A stretch of DNA of 64,000 bases from a virus, in IMG/VR virus record IMGVR_UViG_3300018411_000639, positions 32,001-96,000 of that record, one strand, 5' to 3'. This document shows positions 4,308-35,922 of this stretch, in pieces; positions within the stretch are counted from its first letter, which is position 1, and each line of letters starts with the position of its first letter. Made by a program: the position numbers and the translations under genes. The notes beneath the pieces are model-generated. The model was not told the origin of the DNA, did no database searches, and saw only the letters and a program-made list of their open reading frames with translations.

Positions 4308-7300
4308 TCACTCTGCATCGTCATCCGTTGGGGCTTCTGAGTTATAGACCGCATCACCCGTACCGCCCGGAATGATGTTTTTGCCTCCTTTTACGCCACC
4401 AACGAAAGCCTGTCCTTCCTTATCCAACGGGAAGAGCGTCACGCAGTTATTCCACTGGAACATGTCGAACAACCCCTCAAGAATGATATTCGTTACGACT
4501 TCCCCTGCGATCCATCCGGCCACGGCACCGACCCCGGGAAGGACCGTCCCTCCGGCTAAAGCTAACCCCGTCTTGAGTACGTCAGCAGCTTGCTCTGTCG
4601 TCCTAATTGCCTTGATTGCTTTGAGTCCCGTCTGTGCTGTCTTGACGTGACTCATCAGATCCAATGACTTGATGTAGTCGGCAGAGGTGCTGATGTAGCC
4701 TTTGTAGTCCTTGAATACCTTGCCGCTCTTGACCGCCTGATAGAAGTCCTTCGATAAGGAAACACCCTTTGTTGCGCCTTCGACCGCATTTGCTGCAAAG
4801 GTCCCTGAGCGCACCCCTTGGTTGATTGTCTTGAAGGCAGAGCCGCCACCGTGAATGACGGCACTAGCTGCGCCCATCGTGAGCTTGCGGGTAAAGGAGT
4901 TGGTAGAGGCGATACCGGCCCAAGCAAACATGCTCTTGATGACGTTCCCCTTTCCGGAGTTCTGTGCGTTCGACATGTTCATCAGGCCCGGTGTGATGGT
5001 TGTAACGAAACCTCCTTGAGCACTCATGGAGTGAACGACTTTCCGGACTTCGGCGACGCCGCGGATGCCCGTGTAGGCGTCATACATGTAAAATGTATCG
5101 CAGGGTTTTACGGAAGCGTCACCCAGAAGGAGTAGGCTTCCTTGGTAGGTTTCGCTCCAACTATCAAGCAGGTTTGACACCCCAATCTTGATGGCTGCCG
5201 CTTTCCCGACATCAAAGCCTAGCTTCTCGTAAAGCCAATCCCAACCGAGATAATCCTGAGATATGGTTGTGTCAATTACCGAGGTGTGTTGTTTTGACCA
5301 ATCAATCGACTTGTCGCTGTATAGAGTAGGAGTCGATTTGAGCTCTCCGCCCAGACTGTACATGGCGACAATGTTTGTCTTTACCTCTGAAGAGGAAACC
5401 TTGATTTGGTTGTCCACGATATCACACAAGGAATCGAAGTAATGGAACTGAGAAAAAGTCTTCCCTGCCTCGTAGAGTTTTTCATCCACAATGTCGTACC
5501 GGTACTTGGCAATCCATTGCGGGAGCCCGTAGAAGACACGGCTCTCGAACTGATGGTACATCGGCTGAGCAACAAACTCAGGAACACCTTGCGCCACCAT
5601 CTGCATACAATCCCAAACTGTCTTGTTGTAGATGTTGAAGTTGATGTTCTCTTCTCCGTCAGCGCCGATCAACCATCCATTTGACCCAATGAACGGTTGG
5701 CACTTGTATTTCCCAATATAGAGGTTCTTGCAAAGATCGTATTGCGACTCTTTGGCCAAGTCCGCGAACAAGCCGTTGTTCGAGTAGATTCCGAAATGTT
5801 CGATCCCGAAAGCATTAGGTTCTCCCCACTTTTCGGATAACATGTTCCCTAGTTTATTCTTGCGGGAACGCAACAGGGACGCAATGACATCCGAGGGCTC
5901 TGACCCGAACTTGAAGGCGCCGTTCTCCTGATCCTCTTTGGTGGACACTACGTCGTTGACTAATTCCGCTCCGTCGCTTTGGGCTATGATCGTAACAATG
6001 TCCCCTGCGTCTATGTCGGAAATGACACCATTGAAGCTGATTGGCAACGACATCGGGTTACTGCCATAGCCCATTCTCAGATGGATGCGACAGCCGGGCT
6101 TTACGTTCGCCGTATCGAAGATCATGTTCTTGAGGGCAATCATATTGTCCGTCACCTGCGGGCCGCCTAGCAAACTACCTGTTAGCTTGTACCAACCCAC
6201 GACAAAGGTGTCGCTGACTGCCTCTAGCGCAGTACCGACGAGCGCATCAGGGAGGCCGGCCACCACGTTTACATTATCTGGCGCATGGTCACCGACGTTT
6301 TTGTAGAAATCCCAATAGTCGCTGATGTTGTCACTCACATAAGGAGAGGGTATCTTCGGCGCCTTTGAGATTTCGTTGTAGGCGTTGCTTACCGTGATGG
6401 ATGCGGTGTGGACAGGTTGATCGTTTTCCTGAAAGACGGATACGTCAAGCAAGGAACGGTACGTGTAGAAGTTTGACCAAAGCTTTTGTCCGTCCAACCA
6501 TTCCCCGCCATCATCCACAATCAGGAACATGAACGTAGGGAAGGCCCGAAGCAGGCGACCTCTTGCGGAGTACTCCACCATATCGACCGTCATCCGGTTG
6601 AGCAACTCATCCCCTTCGGCTTCTTCCTGAAAGACTTCTTTGTTCCAGAACTGATCCGCCTTTTCGAAGACGGGCTTGCCGAAGTTATCGAAGTTAAGCG
6701 TTCCTGTCTTCGTTCCCAACGTCTTGCCTGCATCGGTTTGACTCCATGAATAAGTGGACACCGCAGGAGAAGCGGCGACAGAAGACCCCGGCGTACCGAG
6801 GGAGCTACCGTCATAGGCTTGACCTGTCAGCTGAGCGTAGTAGGCGGTCACGTTCGGAACCCAATGGACGTTTAGACCAGTCGGATCGTTAGCGGCTCCT
6901 ACGGGGCAGTATTTCGATCCAATCGCTTCGATCGTAACAAGCCCTTGGTCGATGTAACCTTTCTTCAGGTTGCTAAAGGTGAACGCAAGTCCTTCATCAA
7001 ATGTAGCAAACCGCTTGAGCGTGGACCAGTTGTTATTCCAGTCCATGATGCCGCCGGGGTTGTTGTAGTTACGGATAGCGTTGGATGTCCCGTTACCTGT
7101 TTCGTGAATTACGATAGCCGCAACGATTGCGGGGTCCACGCCGTACTGCTGCCCCAAGGAGATGAAGGTGGACCCTCTTCCCGCCAAGACACCTCCTAGT
7201 GTTTGGTTCATCGTATCCGCAGAAACCTTACTCTTTGTTTCAACGACTCTCGGTGCAGATTCGGTTCCATCGAAGGACAGGTTGCCTGTGGCCTTCCTTG

Positions 7301-9578
7301 TGCTTGTTGTCGCACTTGTCGTGCCTCCTGACGCAAACGCACGGACACGCCCGAATTGATAATAGTTCGCCCAACTCTTCTTTCCATTCGTTACGCCTTT
7401 TTGCGGATTCATCGCTTCAACCGTGTCTTCGTTCCCGAGGTAGATAGCAAGATGCCCGTCCGAAACCAACAAATCCCCTGGTTGTAGCTCGCTTTCGGAA
7501 ATCTTTTGCACACGGGCGGCGTCGTCAACCAAACCTTGATGGTTGGTGCGATACCCAGCCGGAGCAATCCCTAGCTGAATCCACAGCCAACAAATCAGAC
7601 CCGAACAGTCAAACGAGTTTGGCCCTGCCGCACCCCAGACGTAAGGCTTCCCTCTTTGGGCTTGAGCCAAGTCGATGAAGGCTTGCGTGCTTGCGTTTGC
7701 GCTTGTACTGCCTCCGATGGCACCACCTCCGCTCGACCCTCCGCTTCCGCCTGAGCTGCCAGACCAAGTCAGTGACCCGTCATCCCCTGCGATCGCTCCT
7801 TCCGGAATCTCATCGCCCCAATCCTTGTCCGGAACGGTGAAACTGTTCGGTGTCGGCTGCACATTCTTATGCAAGGTCGAGTTGGCATCTGGGTCCATGT
7901 CCTCGTATTTCATCGGGTAGAACACGTAGAAGTCCGGATCAAGGTAGACGGAGTAGTAACCGCCCGGCCCTTTGCCGGGGATGTAAGACACCTCTTTCGG
8001 ATACTCGGTGTAACCCAGAGGAGATAAACCCTTGTTCTTCCGGAAGGCTTGGATAGCAAGGATCGCCACGTTCACTTCTTTGTAAGTTGGAAGAAAGAGG
8101 TCAGGATAAAGCTCTACATGTTTCATCAGCTGTCGCTCTATTTCGTTGTCCTGTCTTGCTTTCCTTTCGAACCCGTCGTAATCCTGTGTAATGGTGTCGG
8201 CCATCGTCCCTTTTTGATTGACCGGGGAGAAGCCTTGGATACTCTCTTGTCGTTCTTGACGGGCGTTAAAGCTGATGCACTGAATTTGTATCTGGTAAAG
8301 GTCTGGGAACTCGGGAACGGTACTGACATTGATATCGTCAATCATAAGATAAGAAGTACCCGTCAGCGAGATGAGTTCGTTCTCGACCTTCACGAACCCG
8401 AAGGAGTTGAATTTCCTGTAGGTTCTTACCAGTGTCTTCGTCATGTTCTCCAGCTGCTGGAACTTGGCGATTACCTTCGCACTGGTTGTTTCCAGTGTAA
8501 AGGTGAAGGTGGTGTCCATGCCGCCCATGAATTGCATCGTGGGCGTGGACTGGTCAGCCAACTGTATCGTCGGAAGAAGGTTGGACAGACCGAACTGCAA
8601 CTCGGTCATCTGAACATTGTCCTCGTTCGTTACGATCGTAGTGAAGCTCTTGTCTTTCAGGAGGTTCTCTCCGATGGTGTAGTCTTCATCATCCACACCG
8701 GCAAGCAGGGTTTCAGGATTCAATGCCTTGAAAACGAAAGAGCCAGTGAGACTCGACTGATCTTTCCCGACAGGTTTCAGGTAGTTCGGCTCTTTTCCGT
8801 CCGAGGACATAGCCCTCTGATAGTAGTAGCGGAACAGATCCCAATCAATGTAATCCTCGAAGAAGATGCCAGGTACTTCTATATAAGGCTCCACGTTAAA
8901 CTCTTGCATAACAAGCGTTGCCTGCAGCGTATCGGGGAACCCCGGCATGGTGTTTACCGAGAACCCTGACAGAGCGACATTGAAGATGGCGTGGGTTGTG
9001 TTCAGGAAGTCATTCACGACTGGCAAGAACGGCGTGCATTTGAATTGAGCTAACAGAGGACGAAGGCCGTCCACATAATACGGACTCTTCGGAAAAGGGG
9101 ATTCCACTTCATACCCGTTGATCTGTTCGTACCCATTGAACACGAACTGGACCACAATCTCTCTTCGGGAATAACCGTGCTTCACTTTTGTCGAACCTTC
9201 TTGTCGGATGGAAACCACACTGTCGGTGGTTGAACTGGTTCTGACGGAGATGAACTCCGGAGGGATCACCAAGGAACAATCCCCTATCCGAAGTGTAAAT
9301 TCATCCGCACCGGTTCGGTGTGGGTATTCGAGGTAGTCGTAATAGTTCGGCGGCTCAACCCGTCGCTCTGGCGTGATTCGGCGAAGTCTGTCCATTACTT
9401 TCTGCGTGTCCTCGTCCTTGATACCTGTTGCCGTGGTGTCGTTGTAGCCTGGATCGGAACCTTTGAATGTTTTCTGCTTTGGCTTTAGCTTTCCGAGGAT
9501 GTCAGACAAGGCATCTGTTGTGTCCTTGCTGACTCCGATGGAAGTTAAAAATGTGTCTAGTAGATCGTCTGCCGGCAT
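4308..9578 (-). CDS. Baseplate hub / tail-associated lysin with NlpC/P60 peptidase and lysozyme-like (glucosaminidase-type) domains
   Basis: 1756 aa; GKPYVWGAAGPNSFDCSGL (Cys658) and GHLAIY (His709); AIVIHETGNG..NNPGGI..YCP..ANDP muramidase-like segment; hub-like RIHLRMGYGS and VRKVVHS..GFVTTI motifs. Confidence 0.8.
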   Translation of the reverse strand: MPADDLLDTFLTSIGVSKDTTDALSDILGKLKPKQKTFKGSDPGYNDTTATGIKDEDTQKVMDRLRRITPERRVEPPNYYDYLEYPHRTGADEFTLRIGDCSLVIPPEFISVRTSSTTDSVVSIRQEGSTKVKHGYSRREIVVQFVFNGYEQINGYEVESPFPKSPYYVDGLRPLLAQFKCTPFLPVVNDFLNTTHAIFNVALSGFSVNTMPGFPDTLQATLVMQEFNVEPYIEVPGIFFEDYIDWDLFRYYYQRAMSSDGKEPNYLKPVGKDQSSLTGSFVFKALNPETLLAGVDDEDYTIGENLLKDKSFTTIVTNEDNVQMTELQFGLSNLLPTIQLADQSTPTMQFMGGMDTTFTFTLETTSAKVIAKFQQLENMTKTLVRTYRKFNSFGFVKVENELISLTGTSYLMIDDINVSTVPEFPDLYQIQIQCISFNARQERQESIQGFSPVNQKGTMADTITQDYDGFERKARQDNEIERQLMKHVELYPDLFLPTYKEVNVAILAIQAFRKNKGLSPLGYTEYPKEVSYIPGKGPGGYYSVYLDPDFYVFYPMKYEDMDPDANSTLHKNVQPTPNSFTVPDKDWGDEIPEGAIAGDDGSLTWSGSSGGSGGSSGGGAIGGSTSANASTQAFIDLAQAQRGKPYVWGAAGPNSFDCSGLICWLWIQLGIAPAGYRTNHQGLVDDAARVQKISESELQPGDLLVSDGHLAIYLGNEDTVEAMNPQKGVTNGKKSWANYYQFGRVRAFASGGTTSATTSTRKATGNLSFDGTESAPRVVETKSKVSADTMNQTLGGVLAGRGSTFISLGQQYGVDPAIVAAIVIHETGNGTSNAIRNYNNPGGIMDWNNNWSTLKRFATFDEGLAFTFSNLKKGYIDQGLVTIEAIGSKYCPVGAANDPTGLNVHWVPNVTAYYAQLTGQAYDGSSLGTPGSSVAASPAVSTYSWSQTDAGKTLGTKTGTLNFDNFGKPVFEKADQFWNKEVFQEEAEGDELLNRMTVDMVEYSARGRLLRAFPTFMFLIVDDGGEWLDGQKLWSNFYTYRSLLDVSVFQENDQPVHTASITVSNAYNEISKAPKIPSPYVSDNISDYWDFYKNVGDHAPDNVNVVAGLPDALVGTALEAVSDTFVVGWYKLTGSLLGGPQVTDNMIALKNMIFDTANVKPGCRIHLRMGYGSNPMSLPISFNGVISDIDAGDIVTIIAQSDGAELVNDVVSTKEDQENGAFKFGSEPSDVIASLLRSRKNKLGNMLSEKWGEPNAFGIEHFGIYSNNGLFADLAKESQYDLCKNLYIGKYKCQPFIGSNGWLIGADGEENINFNIYNKTVWDCMQMVAQGVPEFVAQPMYHQFESRVFYGLPQWIAKYRYDIVDEKLYEAGKTFSQFHYFDSLCDIVDNQIKVSSSEVKTNIVAMYSLGGELKSTPTLYSDKSIDWSKQHTSVIDTTISQDYLGWDWLYEKLGFDVGKAAAIKIGVSNLLDSWSETYQGSLLLLGDASVKPCDTFYMYDAYTGIRGVAEVRKVVHSMSAQGGFVTTITPGLMNMSNAQNSGKGNVIKSMFAWAGIASTNSFTRKLTMGAASAVIHGGGSAFKTINQGVRSGTFAANAVEGATKGVSLSKDFYQAVKSGKVFKDYKGYISTSADYIKSLDLMSHVKTAQTGLKAIKAIRTTEQAADVLKTGLALAGGTVLPGVGAVAGWIAGEVVTNIILEGLFDMFQWNNCVTLFPLDKEGQAFVGGVKGGKNIIPGGTGDAVYNSEAPTDDDAE
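6013..6028 (+). repeat. Variant of dispersed motif (ATGTCGGAAATGACAC)
   Basis: 14/16 match to GTGTCGGAATTGACAC, same orientation. Confidence 0.5.
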
Positions 9579-9601: not shown

Positions 9602-12600
9602 TTAAAACAAACCGGATAGCTTCTCTTGCAACCAGCTGTCGCTGACTTGAGAAGTGTCGTCTTGGGTATTCAGGTTCACGTTCAAGTTCGGGCCGTTGAC
9701 TTTCTCAACCGTTCGTTTGACGGCCGATAGAACAGCGGAACTGTCTTGGCTGCCTTTTGCTTTCACATGAAACTGAACGCCTTCGTTTCCGACATAAGCT
9801 TTTCTTTCTTTGGACGAAGGAGCGATGCGTGGCGAAACCGCAGGCTTCTGGTCAAACTGTCCGTTGGAGTCGGAGGACCCGCTTCCGTTCGGACGGTGAG
9901 AAGCCTTCAGAGCAGAAGGAGGAGCAGAGAACTGCATCCCTGCAAGCAGACTGGAAAGCCCTACGGCTACACCGACCCCAATCATCGTTTTCCCGAATTT
10001 ACCCATCGGCTTGCGGGCAATTTGTTCAACGGCATCCATCCCTGCACTGGCGACACTCTTTCTTTCTCCGGCACTTTGTCCTGTCTTGCGGATTGCGTCG
10101 TTGATGTCTGAGATACCACCCATGACTTCGTCCTCAAGGCCTCGGGTATTCTGTACGGTATGCCTGTCCATCGCTTGTCTTGCTTCCTCGATGGATGCGC
10201 CGTCCAGTGCTTCGAAGTAGTGGCCGATCTGTTCCGCAGTCTTTCGGGCTGCCTGTGTGTTTCTGGCACCAGAACTTCCTGCTTCGTAGATGCCACGCAA
10301 GTCATTCATGCTGACCTCGTTGATCTTGAGTCCTGCTTGATTGCCGAAAGCGATACGCGCCTCACCTAAGCCTTGGATATTCCGTTCGCTCAGGAAAGAT
10401 TGGATGATGTCGTTGCTGTTCCAATTAAGGTACTGCATCGCTTCGTCAGACTGACTGCTTGCCAAGGTGTCGAAGTCCTCGTCCAGTTGCTTCAGGATGC
10501 CTTGGTTTTGTGTAGAGGCTTGTCTCCAAGGGGTAAGCACGGTTTCTTCTTCCACCGCTTTACTTACGTTCTGATCGTTCAGGCGTTCTGCTGCGCTCTC
10601 GTCCAGGCCTCTCACCTGCTCGGCATAGCGAGTCGTTAACTGTTCGCTTACGTCATGAAGGTTGTAGAGTTGACCTCTCGCCCCTTCTGTCCGTTGGATG
10701 ATCTTCTGAATACCGACATCCCCGCTTGAAGGAGTTGGTATTGTGTCGGAATTGACACCTTTGACGGACGCAGCGTCTCTTGCCATCACGGAGTGACGGA
10801 CTTGTTCTCGTGATTCCGCACTGGCTCCTCGTTCACGGATCTGGTCATTGAACTGACGAATCAGCGAACCGGAGTCCTTGTGTCCCCTACTTCTTAACTC
10901 TCCGGCGAACTGGCTTGTGGCTTTACCTTCGTCCGTCCCGAAGAAACTTTCCTGTGCTCTTTTTGCGATTGCATGATCGTAGCCTTCGTGAGAGAGAATC
11001 GAGGATGCGACTGTTTCTCTTAGTCGATTGGCTCTCTTCCCTCTTTTCGTTACGGTAGACTCTAATACGTCTATTTTATCAGAAGGGGACTGTGATGACA
11101 ACGTCTTCGAGGCGACCAGTGCTTCGACCTGACGAAACTGAAAAGTATCGGCATCCGTCATCGCTTCATCGACAAACTGCTGAGCCCCTTTCGTTATGAT
11201 CTCTTCACGGAAGGCAGGTACATCGCTCCTTGTTCCGATACGGAAACTCTCTTGGATCTTCTGACCAAGGACTTCCATGTCAGCCCCATAGACACGCTGT
11301 TGCTTCTTCGTCTTCGTCTCCTGAAGGACAACGAATGGCTGACGGGAGCGCTCCCCTTGGCCGTAAGATTTCACTTGGTAGATACCCGGATCGTAAACAC
11401 CCTCATTTGGCATCAAGTAATTACTCTTGTCCAAGGCTACTCCGTCGATTCGGATAGCGGAGGGTTGTTTTGCTCTCCGGATGGCTTCCTGTTTTGCTCG
11501 GATAACCTCACTGCTTCCTTCTGCTGTTTCGTTCACAACAGACTTCAGGCGATCCATCAGACCTCTGGGGTTCGGTTGACTTCGGATAAGCGGAGAGTTC
11601 CAGATTTGGGTTGCACGAGGATCTTGGAACATCTTGCTCAAGGATAACAGGGATTGATTCATCGGGATATTCATATCGACTGATCCGTTCAGAATGTCAG
11701 CTGCCACAGGAGCCGTTCCTTTCGGGAAGATCGGACCTTCCATAGCGTCGATTACGTTCTGAAGACCCATCTCATGTTCTCCGTTGGCGAGTTGCGTCAG
11801 ACCTAAGCGGTACTTCGGAACCTTGGTAAGCTCTTCCCCACCATCCTTGATATGTTTAACGTCGATCGGCTTTTGTTCGGATTCATCTGTCATCTTCAAG
11901 AGATTATCTAGGTGGACTTGATCCTCTTTGCTGTCCTTAAACACTTCCTCACCGATTTCACGCAAGACATAGTTTGGTGTGGAGATGTAACCGATAGCCC
12001 CTTTGTTGTGCTTGTTCTTGATGGCGGTTGTAACGACAGCTTCGTTGTGCAGATAATTGTCTTTCAGTTTCCCTGTCGCCGTGTCCGTAGGGAGATTCTG
12101 CTCTCCCTGGATGTATGCAGCATGACGAAGGATAGCATCCCCGGCCTCATCTTCTGGATTGGAAGATCCAAACTTGATGGAGTCACCCACGTACTCGTCG
12201 ATTGCAGCAGCCATGTGGCCGTCTTTCCCTGCATTGGTAAAAGATTGCGCCTCGTAGAGTTTACGTGTCGCTAACTCAGCGGGGTCTTGTTCGTTCAACA
12301 GGCGAACGACATTGCGACCTTTCTCTTTATCGTAGCTGGATTCTAGGTTGAGGATCATGGCCTCCATATCTCCATCGACGTCGGCGTTCCAACTATTCGC
12401 TGTGTACCCTTGAAACATGAGGGTGCGACCCTTTAGTTTGTCGTTCAAGCGGACACTGACAGCTAAGTCGGAACTGGTCTTAAATACCGGGTCACGTTTA
12501 CCTGTCCCGAAAATACCGCGCTCCCTGACGTATTCCAAGCCCGCTTTCTCGAAAGCCTCGTCTGTCGCAGCAACGTAGGCGGGGGAGTTCTTCCAGTCAC

Positions 12601-15600
12601 GGGTTGCTTTCTTCAACTCTTTCTTTGTGGCGCCGGCAATCCCTTCCCGGGAAGGGTCTCCCGCTAAGACAAGCGACCCTTGCCCATCAAGAATACCCTT
12701 TCGGATCAACTGCTCTCGGAAGGCGTTGTCGTTTGCTAATCTTTCGTTTACGACTTGATCGCCGATGTCGCGGAAGTTTACACCCATCTCTTCCAGTTGC
12801 TCACGAGAGGTCTCAAGAACATCTCCGTACCCGATGCGACCATCTGCACCTCTCAGAGTCAGGCCCTTCGTGCTCTCTTTATTGGCGAAAGACAACTCAA
12901 TGCCGTTTTCGAGATCCGCTTTCGCTTTCTCTGCGGCTACAGCCAGTGACTCTCCTTTCATCATCTCTTCTGTTACAGGTGAAGTGATGACGGTACCGTG
13001 AGCGTACCCAGAGAACGGCATACGTCCAGATAGCATGAAGCGATTCATGATGCCGTCCTTATGATTCAGTTCATTCTCAAAGGAACCCATCATATCCTTG
13101 TAGGCATCGTCCATCCGCGACTGCATCTGTTTGATGCTTTCTCCGCTTCTAACTGATTGCCCATCCTCAAGGGCTTTTGCCGAGTTAAGCAGTGAGGCGA
13201 TTTTCTTCTGAGAGTCAGAGAAGAAGACCTGTCCATCTACGGCGTGCGTGCGAACCAATGGAATAACCACATCACCGACTCGTTCCCCTGTTTCCGGGTT
13301 CTTGATGGTTATGCCGCCCAAGTTGACTCGGAACGCATCCACGCCCTCGAAGCTTCCATCGTTCTCGTTGGCTACAGAGAACAGCGTCTGCATCATTTCC
13401 TCAACACTGGCTCCACTCTTAGGGATAAGCAAGTCCTCTAGGTTTACGTCCTGAACCCCTCCGGGACTCTTCTCCCCCATTACGTGAGTAAGGGATGCCA
13501 TGATTCCTCGTAAGGACTTGGCTCCCTCTGCATATTCCGGGGACCGCTGAATAATCCGCATTCTCCGGTCAAGGATCGGCTGTGCAACTTTTTCAAACCG
13601 CTCTCCGGTGAATATACGGAACTCTGCATCGCCCACATTGGAACCCAACATCTGATTGGATTTCGGTGTGACGCTGACCCCTTTTCCTGTATCGCCTTCT
13701 GCTCCTTTTGCCGAGTGCATCTCGGACATAATCATGCGACGAACAGGTACGCGGTAGGAGTTGGCTTGTTCCATCTGGCGCATTTCGGCAGCGACTTGTC
13801 TGACCTTTTCGTCGGGACTGTCTTGGATGGCTCGCACCATATCCCTGACACCTTCTAAGTGACCGGCATCAGAGGAAGGATTTCCCTCGATAAGGAGCGT
13901 CTTCTTCCCTGCCTCATCGAGCAGGAAGTCTCCCGTCTCGCTTCGGCTGTAACGTGCGTTCCAACTTGGCAGATGTTCGTCAGCAAGGCGTTCGAACTCG
14001 CCCTCTACACCTAGTTCGTCAAAGCGTTCCGCCATGTAGTTCACGGAGCTACCTGCGACCACGGAGCCGGATAAATGCTTCCCTAGTTCGAACTTACCGA
14101 CCAAGGCTGCGTCTCCGTAAGATTCTTTCCAGACGGCCTGAACGAGGTCATCGTATTCATCGCCCAAGTCGACGGTGGATGCGACAGTCTTCTCTACGCC
14201 ACTGATGCCGAGTTTGAGCTCTCTCAGCTGACCTTCGGCAACAAACCGCGCTTCGTCACCTTCTCCGACCATCTTGCCGGGGTTCACGTACATGGCGTCG
14301 TCTGCGATTTCTCCGACCTGACCACTTGCCTTGTTGTACACGATGTCGATGGTGCTTCCGTCCAACTCACGCGTACCGATGACATCACCCGTCTTCACGA
14401 AGTCACCCGGCGAAATGGTCATTTTTGCCGTTTCAAGGTCTTTGATCTTGAAGGTGTTCAATTCGTTCTTGTTCCACAAATCCTTGCGGAGAATCGGATT
14501 GACGAGCGAATGCTGCAGGTTCGTATCCGAGTAAAGACGGAACTCTTGCATGACGGCATCGAAGTCTTCGGAAGTATACTTGCCACCAAGTCCGGCCAGA
14601 ACATCTTCCTTGCGGGATTCCGTTGCGTCCAGAGCCTGCAGCATTTCATGGGTGTGCATCTGACGCACGTTCGCCATGACCGTTCCTTCGTAACTCCCCA
14701 TACCGGCGGCTTCCATCTTTCCGTAGTAGTTCTCTGCGGCTTCTCTCGTCACGACACTTTCACCGACACGGATATTCAAGGAGTCCAGTTTGGCTTCCTT
14801 GCCGACAAGATCGTCTTTGTCAAAAGATTGGAAAGACTGGAACTGCATCTGCACCGGACGAGTGAACCCGGTCATAAAGCCATACGAGTTCATGGCGACA
14901 CGATCCAACGTGGAAACAAATCCATCCGCAACTTTGTCTTCCCTCAGGATTTGATGCGCGCCTGTGTCCAGTAGGTTTTTGAACTCTGACACGGTCTGTG
15001 CGTCCGTGATTTCTTCGCCGTAATCCACTACCTTTTGGATAAGACCTTCTCCGTAAACAAGGTTCTTGACGTACCATTCCTGAACGGCGATATCCATATC
15101 CTTCATTTTCTTCAGACTGTTGTGCCCACCGTCGGTAAGTTGCTGACTCCAATTAGCCATGTAACTTGCTACCTTTTCATCGGTTCCCCCTACGACAGGG
15201 CTGAATACTTCGTTCAGCGTTTTTCTTACGCCTTCGTCCCGTTGATAGATCGCAGGCAAGAAGTTGATGGCAGAACTCATATCGACTAGATGGTTGGATG
15301 CAACGTCCGACATGTTCGGAATGACTTTCTTCAAGGCTTGCCCACCTTCTACAACGGTCTGCACCCCACTTAATCCGGGAGCAGCTAGTATCGGCTTGCT
15401 GAAGGCGCGGTTCACGGTCGCATTGACTGCTTGGAAATCACCACGGGAAACCATATCGGCGATCCGCTTGTTCTCGTAGATGTACTGCGTCAAGGATTCA
15501 TTCAACGTATCCTGATAATGTGTCACGAGCTTACCTGTATCCTTGTCCGTGTAGGCGTTCAGGCTGCCAATGATGGACTTCTCTATCCGACCTTTCGACA

Positions 15601-18600
15601 CGGATGCAACCGGGCCATCCATATTGATCTTGCTCATAGGGACGACTCCGGCAAACTCACGAATCTCATCCATTCCTTTTTCATCTGTGAGAGCTTCCAG
15701 TAATCGGTGAGAGTGTTTCTGATCTGTAAAGGCGAGCATCAAGTTATCGTCCGGCCCGTTGAATAGCTGTACGGCGTAATCGTGCGCCCCGACCATCCCC
15801 ATCTTCTTGTTGAAGAAAAGGCTCTCGACTTGCTTCAGGTGATGATCGTCGTAGTTCAGCTCTGCACGCAGTTGTTCTGCCACAGGCGCGAATCCTTTTT
15901 CGGACACCCCAATCGAAACCAGAGGGCGCGTACTGTTGATTGCTTGCTCTACGGTCTTCTGGATGTCATCCGGTGTATTGCCGATCGACGCATGGAACTC
16001 ATCCAGACTATTGCCCTTGTGTTTGAAACCGGATGTATCGAACTCGAGCATCGGTTGCGTTTCTGAATTAATGTAACCCCATAGCTTGCGGTCTTCATCG
16101 CTCAACGTTCCTTCGACGCTTTGTTCGTAAAGGGTGTCGGACGTTACGTCACCGAAATCGAAATCACGCATCTGCTCCGCACTAAAACGGGACTTCACGC
16201 TATCGACGGCTTGGAATAACTCTCCTCCGATTGCTTGTGCGATGTGGTAAGGATCGGTAGCGTCACCGATGACACTGTGCTTGAAGCCTGCAGGCAACAG
16301 CTGACGACCGACAAGATCATCGGCGATAGACTTCAAGGCTTCTACTTGCAGGAACTTTTTACGAGAAGGGAGTTTTTCATGTTTCCCAACCCCTCTTACG
16401 GCATTCAGGATGCCGGCCCCCGCCGAATTGTTCGAGGATGCATTGATCCGTGTATACCCGTTTCCGCCCACAACGTCCGCTACCTCGATGGAGTGAATGT
16501 CCGCAAAGGTCCGGTCGGCAATCCGTTTGTTTCCAGCGATAGAGTTTCCTGTTTCAGGGTCTTTCGTAAGCAAGCCCCAAGCTTTCCGTAGAGCCAATGT
16601 CTTCTGTGTTTCCATGTAGTTGCCTGCAATCTTCGGTGTCAGGTTGCTTGGCACTTGTGTCAGGGCTGCGTTCGTGCCGATGGTATTGATAGCTGTCTCC
16701 ATAGTGATATTGGTGTCTTTCAGGACATTGTAGAGTTCCTTGAATGTCGTCTTCTGTTGCGGAGATTTCAGTCTGCCTAGCACTTGATCCGCATTCAAGG
16801 TCTTGTCCAATTCACTGACAGAGCCGTTCTTCACAAGGAACGCGATATCTTCCATTCGGGCCGGTCTGCCGAAGGTTTCTCTGAAGGCGATGTTTACGTC
16901 CGAGTAAGTGCCGTACATCGTTTCAGCGTAACTGAATCCTCGCCCGTTCCCTAGTTGAAACATTCCCTCAAAGTTCCGTCGCGCGCTATCGGAAATCGTG
17001 CGGCCTACTTGTTGGTCCACCATGGCAGAAGTCACCTCTCCGGGGTTCAACGGAATGCGGTTCACAGCTTGATTGGACTCCAAAGCGCTTCGCAGTTCCG
17101 CTTTCCGTCGGTACTTGCTTCGACCCTGCAAACCAACTTGAGTGGCGTAAGAGCGCAAGCCTTTGAGTGGCATCTGGCTGAAGTCTGTCAGTTCCTCGGC
17201 TTCAACGACTGTATGGATGGAGAGGTCATTCTGGAACAAGGCTTGAATGTCGTCCGGGTTCGATCTGAAAATCGTACCTGTCACATTCTGATTTCCTTCG
17301 CCTGCTCCTCGGAACCGAAGAGCGAACAACCCTTCTGCTCCCGGTTGGTTCTTCGCGACTCGACTTGCGATGCTCCCGTCAAGTTCTGCTGTTGGGATGA
17401 ATTTCATCTCATCCACCTGATAGAACTGATTGCGGTTCAATGCGTAATCAAGGTGCGGCTGAATCTCTCCGTCAATCGCCATGAAGTCGTATCCGTCTTT
17501 GTCGATCTTAACCGCTTTGTTGGCGAACACCACGCTCTCGCCCGCATTGTCTGGTGTGACGGTTCGGTTGTTTGGGTTGGAGCGAATAGCTTCCACACCT
17601 TCGAGGACGTCTTGGTAACTTTTCTGAGCAAGAGTCATGGTCGCTTTCGTATCGGATTCCGCAAGATGGGCGTCAATGTCGATACCGAAGGCCGAAGCCC
17701 ACGAACCCAGACTACCCGGACTGCTTCCTGCACTAAAGCTTTCGATGCCTTGGTTGCTGGCGATACCGCTTAACGAAGACAACATTCTTCCTTGATTGGT
17801 TGCGCTCAGACCGGTTCTGGCATCATAGTGGTTCAGCGCCTTGACGGCAGGGATGCCTTGCTCCTGCAGCACGGCGTTCAGGAAAGGAATGTCATAGTTT
17901 GTGCCATTGTAGCTGAGAAGGGCTTTCCCCGGATTGTTGGTTTCGGTGATGGCGTTCCGTAAGGAAATAAGTTGCTGTCTTCCGACGTCTGTCTGGAGTC
18001 CTTGCTTGCGGCCTACTTTAGCAAGATTGGACAAACCTGACCTTGCCCGACGAAGATCCGTTGGGTCAGGGTCGAGCAGTTTGCCCAGAGCGAAACGTTT
18101 GGAACGAGGATTCATCACAAAGGCGTTGGGGTCAGAATAGACTGTCAGCCGTTTAATGGTGGACTGCTCAGCTGCACTCAACGTATCCCACCCATCTCCC
18201 TCTGCGCGGGCTATCAACTCTAGGAAGCCTCTTCGTTGCCGTTCTTCTACACCAAAGGTAAGGACTTCGCTGATTGGCTTATTTGCCTGAATCATACCCG
18301 AAGCATTCTTCGTTACCTGTTGCCGCACAAGAGCGACTTCCGTCATGGCCAGCAATCCTTTTTCGGACTCCGTTGCGTTTGGTCCGAAGTTCCCAAGGGT
18401 TTCCAAGTCGAAACCTGTAACGTCGCCTCCGTCCACCTCGAAGATGTTGCGGATGTTCTCTGCCTGCTTCTGGATTTCATTGAGGTCAAAACCTTTTGCT
18501 GCTTCAGGGTAAGTGGTGAACGCAAACGGCACACGGGATTGTCTGGCGAGAAGTTGGTTCAGCGTATCTCTTTGTTTCTGGTAAAGCTCCTGTGCGTCGG

Positions 18601-18676
18601 GATTATCCCACATTGTCCCAAGGTTGCTGTTGAAACTGCTTCTTGTTGTGTCTCGGTTGATGTCAGCTAAATACAT
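9602..18676 (-). CDS. Giant putative virion protein: DEDDh exonuclease + Rho_N-like module + single-chain two-barrel (beta/beta'-like) RNA polymerase + C-terminal hydrophobic helix
   Basis: 3024 aa; FDLET / YNGTNYD / HLAESD; RPVQMQFQ, PGDFVKTGDVIG, KLGISGVEK; DGIMNRFMLSGRMPFSG, KRDP, NADVDGD, all in canonical order. Confidence 0.8.
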   Translation of the reverse strand: MYLADINRDTTRSSFNSNLGTMWDNPDAQELYQKQRDTLNQLLARQSRVPFAFTTYPEAAKGFDLNEIQKQAENIRNIFEVDGGDVTGFDLETLGNFGPNATESEKGLLAMTEVALVRQQVTKNASGMIQANKPISEVLTFGVEERQRRGFLELIARAEGDGWDTLSAAEQSTIKRLTVYSDPNAFVMNPRSKRFALGKLLDPDPTDLRRARSGLSNLAKVGRKQGLQTDVGRQQLISLRNAITETNNPGKALLSYNGTNYDIPFLNAVLQEQGIPAVKALNHYDARTGLSATNQGRMLSSLSGIASNQGIESFSAGSSPGSLGSWASAFGIDIDAHLAESDTKATMTLAQKSYQDVLEGVEAIRSNPNNRTVTPDNAGESVVFANKAVKIDKDGYDFMAIDGEIQPHLDYALNRNQFYQVDEMKFIPTAELDGSIASRVAKNQPGAEGLFALRFRGAGEGNQNVTGTIFRSNPDDIQALFQNDLSIHTVVEAEELTDFSQMPLKGLRSYATQVGLQGRSKYRRKAELRSALESNQAVNRIPLNPGEVTSAMVDQQVGRTISDSARRNFEGMFQLGNGRGFSYAETMYGTYSDVNIAFRETFGRPARMEDIAFLVKNGSVSELDKTLNADQVLGRLKSPQQKTTFKELYNVLKDTNITMETAINTIGTNAALTQVPSNLTPKIAGNYMETQKTLALRKAWGLLTKDPETGNSIAGNKRIADRTFADIHSIEVADVVGGNGYTRINASSNNSAGAGILNAVRGVGKHEKLPSRKKFLQVEALKSIADDLVGRQLLPAGFKHSVIGDATDPYHIAQAIGGELFQAVDSVKSRFSAEQMRDFDFGDVTSDTLYEQSVEGTLSDEDRKLWGYINSETQPMLEFDTSGFKHKGNSLDEFHASIGNTPDDIQKTVEQAINSTRPLVSIGVSEKGFAPVAEQLRAELNYDDHHLKQVESLFFNKKMGMVGAHDYAVQLFNGPDDNLMLAFTDQKHSHRLLEALTDEKGMDEIREFAGVVPMSKINMDGPVASVSKGRIEKSIIGSLNAYTDKDTGKLVTHYQDTLNESLTQYIYENKRIADMVSRGDFQAVNATVNRAFSKPILAAPGLSGVQTVVEGGQALKKVIPNMSDVASNHLVDMSSAINFLPAIYQRDEGVRKTLNEVFSPVVGGTDEKVASYMANWSQQLTDGGHNSLKKMKDMDIAVQEWYVKNLVYGEGLIQKVVDYGEEITDAQTVSEFKNLLDTGAHQILREDKVADGFVSTLDRVAMNSYGFMTGFTRPVQMQFQSFQSFDKDDLVGKEAKLDSLNIRVGESVVTREAAENYYGKMEAAGMGSYEGTVMANVRQMHTHEMLQALDATESRKEDVLAGLGGKYTSEDFDAVMQEFRLYSDTNLQHSLVNPILRKDLWNKNELNTFKIKDLETAKMTISPGDFVKTGDVIGTRELDGSTIDIVYNKASGQVGEIADDAMYVNPGKMVGEGDEARFVAEGQLRELKLGISGVEKTVASTVDLGDEYDDLVQAVWKESYGDAALVGKFELGKHLSGSVVAGSSVNYMAERFDELGVEGEFERLADEHLPSWNARYSRSETGDFLLDEAGKKTLLIEGNPSSDAGHLEGVRDMVRAIQDSPDEKVRQVAAEMRQMEQANSYRVPVRRMIMSEMHSAKGAEGDTGKGVSVTPKSNQMLGSNVGDAEFRIFTGERFEKVAQPILDRRMRIIQRSPEYAEGAKSLRGIMASLTHVMGEKSPGGVQDVNLEDLLIPKSGASVEEMMQTLFSVANENDGSFEGVDAFRVNLGGITIKNPETGERVGDVVIPLVRTHAVDGQVFFSDSQKKIASLLNSAKALEDGQSVRSGESIKQMQSRMDDAYKDMMGSFENELNHKDGIMNRFMLSGRMPFSGYAHGTVITSPVTEEMMKGESLAVAAEKAKADLENGIELSFANKESTKGLTLRGADGRIGYGDVLETSREQLEEMGVNFRDIGDQVVNERLANDNAFREQLIRKGILDGQGSLVLAGDPSREGIAGATKKELKKATRDWKNSPAYVAATDEAFEKAGLEYVRERGIFGTGKRDPVFKTSSDLAVSVRLNDKLKGRTLMFQGYTANSWNADVDGDMEAMILNLESSYDKEKGRNVVRLLNEQDPAELATRKLYEAQSFTNAGKDGHMAAAIDEYVGDSIKFGSSNPEDEAGDAILRHAAYIQGEQNLPTDTATGKLKDNYLHNEAVVTTAIKNKHNKGAIGYISTPNYVLREIGEEVFKDSKEDQVHLDNLLKMTDESEQKPIDVKHIKDGGEELTKVPKYRLGLTQLANGEHEMGLQNVIDAMEGPIFPKGTAPVAADILNGSVDMNIPMNQSLLSLSKMFQDPRATQIWNSPLIRSQPNPRGLMDRLKSVVNETAEGSSEVIRAKQEAIRRAKQPSAIRIDGVALDKSNYLMPNEGVYDPGIYQVKSYGQGERSRQPFVVLQETKTKKQQRVYGADMEVLGQKIQESFRIGTRSDVPAFREEIITKGAQQFVDEAMTDADTFQFRQVEALVASKTLSSQSPSDKIDVLESTVTKRGKRANRLRETVASSILSHEGYDHAIAKRAQESFFGTDEGKATSQFAGELRSRGHKDSGSLIRQFNDQIRERGASAESREQVRHSVMARDAASVKGVNSDTIPTPSSGDVGIQKIIQRTEGARGQLYNLHDVSEQLTTRYAEQVRGLDESAAERLNDQNVSKAVEEETVLTPWRQASTQNQGILKQLDEDFDTLASSQSDEAMQYLNWNSNDIIQSFLSERNIQGLGEARIAFGNQAGLKINEVSMNDLRGIYEAGSSGARNTQAARKTAEQIGHYFEALDGASIEEARQAMDRHTVQNTRGLEDEVMGGISDINDAIRKTGQSAGERKSVASAGMDAVEQIARKPMGKFGKTMIGVGVAVGLSSLLAGMQFSAPPSALKASHRPNGSGSSDSNGQFDQKPAVSPRIAPSSKERKAYVGNEGVQFHVKAKGSQDSSAVLSAVKRTVEKVNGPNLNVNLNTQDDTSQVSDSWLQEKLSGLF
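10743..10758 (+). repeat. Dispersed 16-bp motif GTGTCGGAATTGACAC
   Basis: Perfect copy; identity with the copy at 25564 extends to 21 bp (TTGTGTCGGAATTGACACCTT). Confidence 0.85.
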
Positions 18677-18695: not shown

Positions 18696-21600
18696 TTATA
18701 CGAGTTTGGATGTGCGAATCTTCTCTTCGATTTCCTGTCGCTTATCCTTCTTCATTTTTACATCTACACCCACATCGCGGGTGCTGTAGCGGTAATCTAC
18801 CTCTATATCTTCTAAGCCCATCTCGGTAAGGACATCCATAAGTTTGTTTCTCACCGTCAGGGCATTACTGCGGACATTCATTTTCGGAAGAGGGATTTCT
18901 CCTTCTGCATTGGCTTGGTCGATTTGATCCTGCCAAACATCGAACTCCCCGAAGTCCAGTCCCTGCTGCTTAATCATCTTGATTTTCACACTGTCGAGGT
19001 CTGTCTCCTCGTTCCACCCTTCCCACTCTGCATCGGGCAGAACGTTCTCCTGGAAGTACGCATCCAGAGAAGGCTTATCTTCGACAGGCATTCCCCATGT
19101 ACTCTCTAAAGCTCGTCGCAGGTACTTTGGAGCCAGACTCAGAATCTTGCCCTTCTCTTCTTCCGGAGCCTTCATAAAGTACTTCATGTACTGGCGGTCT
19201 GTCTTTGGTAACGCAGCTAGAATGTTGGCCAGAGGATCTCCACGATCATAACCGTACATCGTCTTCTCCGATTTGTTGTAGTAGTCGATGGCTTTGGTGG
19301 CATCTGAGGACAGGCGAGTGACGCTTCTGTCGCTTTGGATCTCGGTCAGCTCCTTATTGATTTGACCGACAATGAGTGACTGAGAGGCTTGCATGTCAAC
19401 GTACTTTGGCGCACCTGTCTTGAACTCGAACTGATCTCTGTCTGCGTAGTTCATCTTGATGAATTTCTTGAAGTCCATCAGATCCCGTTTGCGGGCTTTC
19501 TTGTCCTGTCCGTTGAACTCGGCACTCTTCATGAAGGCTTTCACGTCGAAGCCTTCTTCTTTGAGCGTCTTTTGTGCGTACTCCTCGTAGAGTCCGCGGT
19601 ACTTCACGTATTTCAAGGTGTCGATGTATTCGTTCAGATTGCGTTCCTTCTGGCGTGTTTCTGGTATCCAGCGTTCGCCTGTCGTAGCTTCTTTTGTTCC
19701 GACAATAGCTTTCCCGATGGCGGTGACAGAGAAACCTGTCAAGGCTCCCAATATCTTTCCGTAACGGGTAGATCCGAACGCTGACCCGAGCAACGTCCCC
19801 CAAATCAAACCACTTGGTCGGTTGATGCTTTCCCGAATGGCAGGAATCAGGAAGTCACGTACAGGATGCGTCCAGTTCTGGAAATCCTTGCCGTACACTT
19901 CTCGTTGCTCGTAACTCTCTGCCGCACTTCTTACCTGAAGGACTTTCGTATGAAACGGTGTGTTCAGATGGGACACAGCCTCCCATGCTTTCCCGAAGGC
20001 GATCTCCATCGGATTGTAGCGGGCATGGATGGATGCAGGAGTGAAGTCATCCTCTTTCTCCGTAGCAAGGCCGCGCTTCACCATGGTCTTGTTTACATTC
20101 AATCCGTTGCTGTAGACCACGGCCCGAATACTGTTGACGGTATCTTTTGTGACCTGATTGGCTTCATCCATATCGTAACCGATTCTCACGGATCGACCGG
20201 GTTTCAGCAGCTGAGCCAGTTGCTTGCTCGCTTCCTCTCCCGTTCCATCTGCCATCGCTTCGCTTACGTGTACTCCGGCTAGTTTGATTGGATTGTCGGG
20301 CATCTCGTTCGCGATAAAGGTGTTGTTGCTCAGCATCTTTTTGACGGTCACAGTCTTCATTTCAAGGTTCGCCGTTTTGAATCGGTACGGATAAATCCGC
20401 ATCGGCTCTTTGGCTTCGGTGACGCGATTGTCGATGGCAGACACTTCTTCTTGCTCTTCTGTTGTGATCTTCATCTTGGACAGCATAGCCTTTGTTTCTG
20501 CATATTCTCGCGAGTACGGAGCCACATCGCCTAATATCCTCAGGCGGTCAATCGGATCGTAAAGTTCTCCTCTGCCAATCGACCCATCCGCTATACCGTT
20601 CCGGATGTAATCACGGGCTGTCCGAAGGTTATTCAAGGACTCCTGAAGCAAATCATCGCTATATTTGAATTTTGCTGTATACGTCTGATTTGGGTCGTCC
20701 CGGTTTATATATTGAACATACCCGTTCCCCTTTTCTTGTCCTAGCGCCCACATATAATAATTCACTTGTTTGTGGTGGTCTGCTCGAGCCTCTCCTGTTT
20801 TGAGGACCTCTCTAAAGCCTTTGTCACTAATTGTCTTGATGTCGACTACACCTATCTTTGTTCTCGAAGATTCGTCATGAATGACGGCATCGTAGAAACC
20901 GAGGACGCCGTTCTCTTCGTCTTCGATCTTCCCTTCTGTATCAAGGGCGAGGCCGGACTTCAACCACATATCTTCTATTTTTTTGTGGTACTCCGTTCCT
21001 TCATCAACGATACTCTGCAAGCCTTCGTCCGTAATCGGGTCTTGGTTCAGCAAGTGCTTGATGATTTCCTCGGGTTCTTTTCCTAGAGTGGACGAACCGA
21101 CACGAAGCGCCGTAGGGTCTTTGATGTTCCACGTTCGCTCGTAGCCTTCTCCAGGTAGTCGCATCTCTCCCTTGGCTACTTTCGTATAAGGGTCACCTGT
21201 TTGGAAGTTGGTAAAGTAATCCTCGCCCGGCATCCATTCTGGCATCGTGTTCTTGATTGGGTTGATGTACGCAACATCATTCCTTCTTTTCGGCAAGAAG
21301 CGTCGGAAGATTTCCGAGAACTCTCCTCCGAGCCCGCCAGCGTTCTGATCCCAGAACTGGCGATTGAACGACATAGACCAACCCGGGGTGTCTATAACTT
21401 CTTTTTCAGCTTGCGCTTCACCGGTAACGAATCCTTGGATTGCAAAGCCGTAAATACCAGCTATATCGCCCCACTGGTTCGCCTGTTCGCTCAAGCTATG
21501 CCCTACACTGTTTGGTGAAGCAACATCCCCTATTGTAGGTTCAGGCGTTACTGGTGGAGTCGTGTCCACTCGCGTGTCCGCACTTACAGCTTTGCTTAGC

Positions 21601-24428: not shown

Positions 24429-25095
24429 TCATCACACCCTCATTCTGCCAATGGACGCCTCCGATGAGAGGGAAGTCCATGAAGTCTTTCTTCTGGTTAA
24501 ATTCGTCTTTGAAGTATATCATCGGATCCATTCCGTTAGCCCTCAGTTCATCCACAAACGCTTTGTTGTCAGAACCCGAGTTCTCGGCGTACTCCTCTAC
24601 TTCTTGTTGGTTGGTGGTGAGTTGGATGTTATGACCTTTCAGGTTCAGGATTCTCTCTGCCCTTGCTACCGCCAGCATCAAGCGATCCCATGTCCAGTCT
24701 TCCATCTGCTCGTAGGAGTATTCCGGCATAGCCGCCTTGACGACAGCCATACACTCCTGGTCGAATTGCTTGGTCTTTCTCTTCCCTTTCTCGTAGGCAT
24801 CCAGAACGGAACCCAAACTGGTGAAGTTTGAAGCCTCGACGATCATCGGGCACGCATACGCCGACACCCCCGCAAGAGGGTAGTTCTCGAAGTCAATGTC
24901 TGCGGGCTCAAGGATGGCCGCTTGGCAGATGGCATCTTCCATGTCGTGGTCATCCTGCGTCAAGTTGGTGATGTCCCGATACTCTTTTCGCGTCAGGGTC
25001 CGAAAGACGAATTCTTTATTCTGAAAAAGGACATAAATCACTTTATGTCCTTCATGTGCTTCTTTGTGGTAAAACAAATCATAGATGGAGATCAT
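24370..25095 (-). CDS. Putative tail assembly chaperone (paralogue 2)
   Basis: 241 aa; FVFRTLTRKEY..EDAICQ motif shared with the upstream gene; position before the giant tail genes. Confidence 0.55.
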   Translation of the reverse strand: MISIYDLFYHKEAHEGHKVIYVLFQNKEFVFRTLTRKEYRDITNLTQDDHDMEDAICQAAILEPADIDFENYPLAGVSAYACPMIVEASNFTSLGSVLDAYEKGKRKTKQFDQECMAVVKAAMPEYSYEQMEDWTWDRLMLAVARAERILNLKGHNIQLTTNQQEVEEYAENSGSDNKAFVDELRANGMDPMIYFKDEFNQKKDFMDFPLIGGVHWQNEGVMNAIRTQMGKAKNTESQIER

Positions 25096-25106
25096 TGCAT
25101 TGCCCC

Positions 25107-28823: not shown

Positions 28824-28851
28824 AGCATAACACTCCTTTCGTATCATATAG

Positions 28852-35893: not shown

Positions 35894-35922
35894 ATTATAC
35901 TATAGGGTGTCGGAATTGACAA
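35894..35922 (-). promoter_or_regulatory. SigmaA-type promoter overlapped by the dispersed motif and a 9-bp inverted repeat
   Basis: TTGTCA-17 bp-TATAAT then GAGGTG RBS and ATG at 35876; ATAGGGTGT/ACACCCTAT inverted repeat at 35902-35931. Confidence 0.75.
35907..35922 (+). repeat. Dispersed motif copy GTGTCGGAATTGACAA (only intergenic copy)
   Basis: 15/16 match; covers the -35 box of the promoter. Confidence 0.85.

Follow-up and report, generated by a model that had tools for sequence, protein, structure and literature searches.

The DNA analysed here is a 64,000-nucleotide (nt) window of a 112.6-kb virus record from IMG/VR (IMGVR_UViG_3300018411_000639, of which it covers positions 32,001 to 96,000), whose completeness is estimated at ~51%. 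All the large genes of the window lie on the minus strand. The one considered here is a single open reading frame (ORF) at 9602-18676, taken from the ORF list and its translation, whose 3024-amino-acid (aa) product, P0001, contains a core that, judged from a structural model, very probably has the fold of a genuine two-barrel RNA polymerase (RNAP), with a beta-like and then a beta'-like module in one chain. The parts of the gene are as follows, in window coordinates; the motifs were checked in the translation.

9602-18676, minus strand: P0001 gene, encoding from N- to C-terminus a predicted exonuclease, ~830 aa without an assigned fold, the putative single-chain RNAP core and a tail/membrane C-terminal module
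17579-18436, minus strand: predicted DEDDh (DnaQ-like) 3'-5' exonuclease domain, residues ~81-366, with motifs D90-x-E92, N257...D262 and H337...D342
13712-15079, minus strand: beta-like module, residues ~1200-1655, with R1273-P-x3-Q1278, a barrel with a lipoyl/SBHM-like insert (PGDFVKTGDVIG), and K1488-x7-K1496
14837-14860, minus strand: RPVQMQFQ, residues 1273-1280
Residues 1385-1392, minus strand: TNLQHSLV
Residues 1423-1434, minus strand: PGDFVKTGDVIG, within the lipoyl/SBHM-like insert
14189-14215, minus strand: KLGISGVEK (K-x7-K), residues 1488-1496; K1488 and K1496, near-invariant and with the E. coli spacing, are the candidate nucleoside triphosphate (NTP)/RNA-binding lysine pair of the beta-type barrel
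11777-13492, minus strand: beta'-like module, residues ~1729-2300 (VIA-align, Foldseek)
Residues 1873-1890, minus strand: KDGIMNRFMLSGRMPFSG
12368-12499, minus strand: putative catalytic stretch (PF00623, hhalign, conservation), from KRDP (residues 2060-2063, with R2061 and P2063) to NADVDGD (residues 2097-2103, nt 12368-12388, with N2097, D2099, D2101 and D2103)
11942-12043, minus strand: bridge-helix-like helices, residues 2212-2245 (model helices H1013-1028 and H1030-1046), with conserved K2225, G2229, S2232 and N2235

That a single-chain two-barrel RNAP lies within this giant protein had been proposed in a preliminary description, on the strength of seven motifs standing in canonical order within one ORF; all seven are present in P0001 at the residues and nucleotides given there. 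The spacing of K1488 and K1496, likened to that of K1065/K1073 in E. coli beta, is indeed the same in the MG1655 sequence. In two-barrel RNAPs the beta-type barrel bears two invariant lysines with this K-x7-K spacing (Rpb2 K979/K987).

An exhaustive HMMER search of 1.8 billion representative proteins with P0001 returned 35 relatives, most of them 2800-3300 aa long and 24-33% identical, all metagenomic and none with an informative name; a 3027-aa protein nearly identical to P0001 is encoded on a 188-kb contig. In the full-length family alignment only 57 of the 3024 positions of P0001 are conserved at 85% or more, and these include the exonuclease residues D90, E92, N257, D262, H337 and D342, the beta-like and switch-2-like residues R1273, Q1278, K1488, E1495, K1496, K1873 and S1889, the residues R2061, P2063, D2099, D2101 and D2103, and an additional block formed by K2225, G2229, S2232, N2235, E2267, Q2268 and K2274. 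The D2099-V-D-G-D2103 site is kept in 31 of 32 aligned members (the exception, P0029, has lost DxDGD), R2061 and P2063, which hhalign aligns to beta' R425/P427, are near-invariant, and so are K1488, E1495 and K1496. Conservation of the catalytic residues at 24-33% identity indicates that the motifs are more than chance resemblances.

Cultured relatives were reached only via the neighbouring hub gene and the family hidden Markov model (HMM), which recognises gp034 of Bacillus phage vB_BauM_KLEB27-3 (E 1e-49; metal loop DYDGD); tblastn from gp034 then leads to gp095 of vB_BceM_WH1 (DHDGD) and to a protein of phage Edson. The KLEB27-3 and WH1 proteins retain the exonuclease motifs, R-x-P and DxDGD. 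Searches with P0001 itself gave little: Pfam and PHROGs yielded only a weak RNase_H_2 match, no PHROG, and nothing in the polymerase region; neither phmmer against PDB sequences nor tblastn with residues 1200-2300 in a set of 50,697 phage records gave a match; a word-indexed protein search returned only P0001, and a related-locus search with the P0001 sequence alone found no relative.

Residues 1200-2300 were modelled with AlphaFold2 from the family alignment and without templates (mean predicted local distance difference test, pLDDT, 85.1; predicted template modelling score, pTM, 0.84; model residue 1 is P0001 residue 1200). The fold search which the preliminary description had named as the check came out in its favour: Foldseek against the PDB gave at least 318 matches with E <= 1e-3, RNAP beta' chains making up 49 of the top 50 listed (E ~1e-5), and the model matches beta, beta', P74-26 gp62, QDE-1, P23-45 gp96 and phi14:2 gp66. 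The model was also compared by VIA-align with 48,161 representative chains, the best 50 matches being listed. Model residues 1-456 (P0001 1200-1655) resemble the C-terminal half of the second-largest RNAP subunit, with plastid beta (8qma_A) at Z 12.9 and a root-mean-square deviation (rmsd) of 3.6 over 212 residues, AR9 7s00_C and phiKZ 7ogp_C both at Z 12.5, and Pol I A135 at Z 11.7. Model residues ~530-1101 (P0001 1729-2300) resemble the part of the largest subunit that extends from the N-terminus as far as roughly the trigger loop, the matches including Pol II Rpb1 (9mu7_A, Z 11.9), vaccinia Rpo147 (6rfl_A, Z 11.7), archaeal RpoA' (2pmz_A, Z 11.3) and Mycobacterium tuberculosis beta' (Z 9.7).

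A single rigid superposition spans both barrels (model 1-1100) with every solved type of single-chain two-barrel RNAP, at Z 6.8-9.0 and with 307-386 residues aligned: P74-26 gp62 (Z 9.0, 327 aligned), QDE-1 (Z 8.7, 368), RDR2 (Z 8.2), P23-45 gp96 (Z 7.2, 332) and phi14:2 gp66 (Z 6.8, 386). Isolated double-psi beta-barrel domains match model residues 689-950 (Z 7-9), the RNAP clamp domain matches 514-679 (Z 6.8), and lipoyl/biotinyl-type domains match 203-282 (Z 6.0-6.7). This lipoyl/biotinyl match agrees, in the model, with the SBHM insert of cellular and jumbo-phage beta barrels, an insert that YonO-like enzymes are said to lack (PMC7824862); because Z 6-7 lies in the range that VIA-align flags for common arrangements, a clamp and an SBHM insert are assigned to the P0001 core only tentatively. 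The modelled beta'-like module thus comprises a clamp-like part, the switch-2-like motif K1873...GR...SG, a double-psi barrel bearing R2061-x-P2063 and D2099-x-D-G-D2103, and bridge-helix-like and trigger-loop-like helices. We infer the bridge-helix-like helices at residues 2212-2245 from the model helices, the conserved residues in them and VIA-align alignments to Rpb1 that extend to about residue 1132. Among predicted viral structures (BFVD), the fold matches include two viral proteins that are unannotated or called "minor tail protein" (E ~1e-15), a protein of Acinetobacter phage ME3, RNAP subunits of jumbo phages and giant viruses (NCLDV), and crAss-like giant proteins.

At the sequence level the link to beta' is weak and falls at the expected places. 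With the family profile, phiKZ gp55 and dozens of beta' chains give weak, one-directional matches (E 0.015-0.2), located at the DxDGD and switch-2-like regions. The Pfam beta' barrel model PF00623 has its sole match on the contig, below threshold, at window 12347-12496 (E 3.7e-3, 13.7 bits), and its sole matches in the complete KLEB27-3 and WH1 genomes (7e-5 and 5.4e-4) at the homologous place; in 0305phi8-36 and ME3 it has no match. Aligned to E. coli beta' by hhalign, the family gives two colinear local alignments, one of P0001 1859-1902 to beta' 320-361 (KQGRFRQNLLGKRVDYSG; E 7e-3) and one of 2057-2109 to beta' 421-470 (NRAP...NADFDGD; E 4e-3), the latter, like the PF00623 match, lying exactly where the beta'-side R-x-P...DxDGD had been pointed out beforehand. 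The second alignment makes R2061 and N2097 the counterparts of beta' R425 and N458, which contact the NTP ribose in bacterial RNAP. In two-barrel RNAPs an invariant R-x-P (Rpb1 R446/P448) precedes the metal loop by ~35-40 residues (PMC2919709). Of the features by which such enzymes are recognised, P0001 has a DxDxD metal loop, R-x-P, K-x7-K and, in the model, joint packing of the two barrels.

The N-terminal part of P0001 was covered by a second model, of residues 1-1200 (pLDDT 79), in which residues 81-366 are predicted to form a conserved DEDDh 3'-5' exonuclease. Fold matches to this domain range over Z 13.6-14.4, with the PolC exonuclease (9qpc_A) at Z 14.4 and rmsd 3.1 over 179 residues, ExoI at Z 14.3, Pol III epsilon at Z 13.7 and the DinG exonuclease within Z 13.7-14.4, and the best of them also include the exonucleases of family A/B polymerases. 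The family profile matches TREX1 and ExoI here (E 8e-5 to 1e-3). P0001 has the three motifs DxE (Exo I), NxxxxD (Exo II) and HxxxxD (Exo III), conserved at 85% or more, and KLEB27-3 and WH1 also retain the catalytic residues. The match list from the fold search of this model was filled by the exonuclease, residues ~370-1200 having no assigned fold, and an ESM Atlas search with residues 400-1200 gave no usable match. Exonucleases of the DnaQ type typically accompany DNA polymerases, and in coronaviruses nsp14 provides proofreading through a separate exonuclease domain; we know of no two-barrel RNAP whose RNA is proofread by a separate exonuclease domain, and to our knowledge no other virion RNAP carries a fused DEDDh exonuclease. 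It is conceivable, if rather unlikely, that exonuclease and polymerase cooperate within one injected protein, either in trimming RNA 3' ends or in resecting the end of the entering genome or host nucleic acids to give the polymerase a place to start.

The surroundings of the gene are those of a tail operon, in which the following features were recognised.

4308-9578, minus strand: downstream neighbour, a 1756-aa baseplate hub with NlpC/P60 and glucosaminidase domains, homologue of 0305phi8-36 gp147 (Pfam, PHROG, tblastn)
9617-10003, minus strand: C-terminal module of P0001, residues 2892-3020, homologous to residues 2403-2525 of 0305phi8-36 gp146 (BLASTP E 2e-6)
18696-24428, minus strand: upstream neighbour, 1910 aa, homologue of gp145 (BLASTP, 32% identity over the full length)
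24370-25712, minus strand: two genes homologous to those of the split tail chaperonins gp143 and gp144 (BLASTP E 2e-34 and 4e-27)

The phage is, on this sequence homology, a distant relative of Bacillus phage 0305phi8-36, and its nearest cultured relatives infect Bacillus and Moorella. The gene order is chaperonins, gp145 homologue, P0001 and hub; as in 0305phi8-36, the gp145 homologue separates the chaperonins from P0001, and a tail sheath gene lies beyond the chaperonins. The homologies to gp143, gp144, gp145 and gp147, together with the sheath gene, bear out the earlier placement of the P0001 gene, in a contractile-tailed phage, between the genes for the tail chaperones and the baseplate hub. 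This synteny puts P0001 in the slot of gp146, which mass spectrometry detected in 0305phi8-36 virions and whose label, "hypothetical tape measure protein", was derived chiefly from the length of the tail. The two proteins share the slot between gp145 and the gp147 hub and ~130 homologous C-terminal residues, and residues 2431-2633 of P0001 are weakly similar to gp146 by BLASTP; unlike P0001, gp146 lacks DxDxD along its whole length, and no relationship of it to the exonuclease or polymerase parts was detected. The C-terminal module has one hydrophobic segment (residues 2894-2917, nt 9926-9997, by hydropathy scan) and a conserved ...SDxWL end, and the family profile matches the C-termini of KLEB27-3 gp034, WH1 gp095 and Moorella phage CDS0031. 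The annotations of the KLEB27-3, WH1 and Edson relatives read "structural protein", "virion structural protein" and "hypothetical protein"; with gp146, these labels agree with the expectation that such a polymerase would be annotated only as a hypothetical, structural or tape measure protein.

Several further observations concern this operon and its counterparts. The gp145 homologue has a Cas4/RecB-like PD-(D/E)XK match (PHROG 1706, E 4e-14, residues 1137-1279; PHROG 1990 also matches) and a weak Pfam SNase match (residues 1397-1457), and is thus a second nuclease-bearing giant protein, adjoining the exonuclease-polymerase P0001; gp145 of 0305phi8-36 is a virion protein. On the rather unlikely reading that exonuclease and polymerase cooperate in the injected protein, P0001, the gp145-like nuclease protein and the wall-degrading hub would make up an injected 'take-over' cassette of three proteins, characteristic of 0305phi8-36-like jumbo phages. 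In Moorella phage MTATph1 the slot (L003:11724-19080) is broken up into a 1309-aa ORF, a transposase gene and small ORFs; no DxDGD was found in it, and its last ORF, CDS0031, keeps the family C-terminal module (E 8e-9). At window 26302-28847 (minus strand), two genes after the tail tube paralogues have tube-like N-terminal parts (PHROG 9206/34314) and repeated matches to endolysin families. The 13-mer TGTCGGAATTGAC occurs eight times with at most one mismatch (0.19 expected), throughout on the plus strand and antisense to the genes, at window positions 130, 6014, 10744, 25565, 32835, 35908, 53076 and 53952; most copies lie within coding sequence, that at 35908 lying in the gap upstream of a gene that starts at 35876. 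A tie between this 13-mer and the phage polymerase is only a guess.

The explanation that accounts best for these findings, and which we regard as probable, is that P0001 fills the tape-measure slot of a 0305phi8-36-like jumbo myophage and carries a complete single-chain two-barrel RNAP core which is packaged and injected for early transcription. Its beta-type barrel would supply K1488 and K1496, and its beta'-type barrel R2061 and the Mg-binding D2099/D2101/D2103, with N2097 at the site where bacterial RNAP reads the ribose. P0001 would be assembled into the tail via the C-terminal module, adjoining the hub, and sheath contraction would expel it together with the gp145-like nuclease protein; it would then transcribe the first phage genes off the entering DNA without need of the host polymerase, as P23-45 gp96 does. 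We infer catalytic activity, use of a DNA template, packaging, injection, an early-gene role and any ruler function, packaging in particular from the position of the gene, the C-terminal module shared with gp146 and the annotations of relatives. The injected early-transcription role, taken by itself, we hold to be somewhat more likely than not.

A number of points weigh against this explanation. For the beta half no significant match was obtained at the sequence level: PF00562 gives nothing, and hhalign against E. coli rpoB no significant alignment. The eight invariant residues of two-barrel RNAPs include a beta-side Asp, Rpb2 D837 (PMC2919709). This acidic residue, beta D814 in E. coli, appears to be without a conserved counterpart in the P0001 family: the candidate motif has the family consensus T-x-E-Q, reads T-F-[DE]-G in the Bacillus phages and is Leu1388-Gln-His in P0001, position 1388 being mostly acidic in the family, Leu in P0001 and Gln in its closest subclade. 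The preliminary description had likened TNLQHS to YNxEDS; this is the one weak point among the motifs, as the acidic pair is missing. A folded core of ~1100 residues and an exonuclease also fit badly with an extended ruler in the tail tube; since residues 1-2300 are predicted to be largely globular, a simple ruler role is doubtful, and P0001 may not be a tape measure at all. Finally, with a contig ~51% complete, the early genes, their promoters and any second RNAP would be out of view; on the 112.6 kb at hand no second copy of the polymerase was found.

Among the alternatives, the one that survives best, which we nevertheless hold to be improbable, is an active two-barrel polymerase with another job: making primers, acting as a transcription-driven motor that pulls in the ~220-kb genome, or working on nucleic-acid ends with the exonuclease. 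The fusion of a DEDDh exonuclease to the polymerase, conserved with it family-wide, is in keeping with such a job, and a polymerase role in injection was raised for 0305phi8-36 by Hardies et al. (PMC2147016); against this, the phage-packaged RNAPs characterised in the literature (N4, phiKZ-like, phi14:2 and P23-45) all transcribe early genes, and the sequence of P0001 gives no specific pointer to priming.

Less probable than this is a real but non-packaged RNAP, made in the infected cell from a gene that merely lies within the tail operon. The 'structural protein' labels in KLEB27-3 and WH1 are perhaps positional annotation only, as this alternative would have it, but the gene shares its orientation with those of the tail chaperonins, the gp145 homologue and the hub and is packed in among them, the C-terminal module is homologous to that of gp146, a protein seen in 0305phi8-36 virions by mass spectrometry, and a late tail-operon gene would be useless for early transcription unless its product were carried over in the particle.

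Lower again we place a catalytically dead relic, in which a tail or ejection protein retains an ancestral RNAP fold only for bulk or as a scaffold. It would accommodate the Leu of P0001, and the Gln of its closest subclade, at the mostly acidic beta-side position, the loss of DxDGD in P0029, and the occupation of the same slot by gp146 without any DxDxD; yet at 24-33% identity K-x6-E-K, R-x-P, DxD[GA]D and the switch-2-like motif are kept almost without exception, a near-invariant pattern that points to selection on catalysis.

A two-barrel DNA polymerase analogous to PolD, itself a two-barrel enzyme (PMC10770324), with the DEDDh domain as its proofreader, is the least probable reading and very unlikely: the N-terminal domain does have PolC, Pol III epsilon and the family A/B polymerase exonucleases among its best fold matches, but the strong matches of the core are all to RNAP beta or beta'/Rpb1, including the clamp-like, bridge-helix and trigger-loop regions, and the counterparts of beta' R425 and N458 are kept as R2061 and N2097 (hhalign). 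No PolD or other two-barrel DNA polymerase was among the 50 VIA-align matches listed, which leaves such a similarity possible.

If P0001 is indeed a packaged and injected RNAP, the start of transcription in these phages would be explained, and the passage of a folded ~1100-residue enzyme through the tail tube would become a question in its own right. The cultured members of the family, Bacillus phages KLEB27-3, WH1 and Edson, make the idea directly testable, and the case gives reason for re-annotating giant tail proteins labelled "structural/hypothetical".

Comparison with known two-barrel enzymes places P0001 as follows. YonO, 0305phi8-36 gp99 and QDE-1 (PF05183) share the two-barrel fold with it, but PF05183 has no match on the 112.6-kb contig, in KLEB27-3 or in WH1, while the control gp99 was found (E 1e-20), and the gene of gp99, on the right arm of 0305phi8-36 (which serves as type phage of the lineage), is non-structural, unlike the tail-operon gene of P0001. 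The two kinds of polymerase show a complementary pattern: 0305phi8-36 has the YonO-like gp99 (W01:209484-211547) and lacks polymerase motifs in gp146, whereas KLEB27-3 and WH1 have the fused polymerase and neither a PF05183 match nor any other PF00623 match. That gp99-type and fused RNAPs are alternative solutions to the same need is suggested by this pattern, which with so few genomes is only suggestive. In the Acinetobacter phage vB_AbaM_ME3, a 1603-aa hypothetical protein, gp036 (L007:10467-15278), occupies the slot between the gp145-like and hub genes and has R-E-P followed ~45 residues on by DHDQD; judged from these motifs it may be a more distant, diverged polymerase analogue in a phage of a Gram-negative host. 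The ME3 protein matched in BFVD is perhaps gp036.

The crAss-like phi14:2 gp66 (PDB 6vr4) is, like P0001, a giant virion-type protein with a single-chain two-barrel core, but phi14:2 is podovirus-like and gp66 has a DFDxD loop, QDE-1-like features, no exonuclease and no sequence similarity to P0001. The best matches for each half of the core are the jumbo-phage RNAPs (the non-virion RNAPs of phiKZ, 7ogp, and AR9, 7s00) and cellular beta/beta', and the conserved motifs of P0001 run in the order beta then beta'. Unlike these multisubunit enzymes, P0001 is one polypeptide fused to tail-protein modules, lacks the beta-side acidic pair, and is matched by the Pfam beta/beta' models below threshold or not at all.

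The closest parallel is P23-45 gp96, since a virion RNAP fused to a tape measure protein has been published for one phage group only, that of Thermus phage P23-45 and its relatives P74-26, G20c and TSP4 (PDB 8h2m/8h2n; Chaban et al. 2024, PMC10770324); KLEB27-3 and WH1 do not appear in the supplements of that paper (PMC10770324). In both cases a single-chain two-barrel RNAP with DxDGD lies in a giant protein of the tape-measure slot, with a membrane-type segment elsewhere in the protein, and annotation recognised neither. However, no sequence similarity between P0001 and the gp96 PDB chains was detected by phmmer or the family profile, no metallopeptidase domain was found in P0001 by Pfam, unlike gp96, and the gp96 phage is a siphovirus, whereas that of P0001 is a contractile-tailed jumbo phage. 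The polymerase is central in P0001 (residues ~1200-2300) and N-terminal in gp96; only in P0001 is it preceded by a DEDDh exonuclease and ~830 further residues; and the P0001 core, with an apparent clamp-like part and SBHM-like insert, is nearer to cellular and jumbo-phage beta/beta' (Z ~12-13) than to gp96, which is clamp-less and flat. P0001 is therefore an analogue of gp96 that stands outside the gp96 family. By its lack of similarity, central polymerase, cellular-type core, fused exonuclease and myophage setting, the P0001 family forms a further lineage distinct from that of P23-45, in which the strategy of placing a polymerase in the tape-measure slot would have been followed separately by an ancient line of contractile-tailed jumbo phages, one whose polymerase core has the closer resemblance to the cellular and jumbo-phage beta/beta' and is joined for good to a 3'-5' exonuclease.

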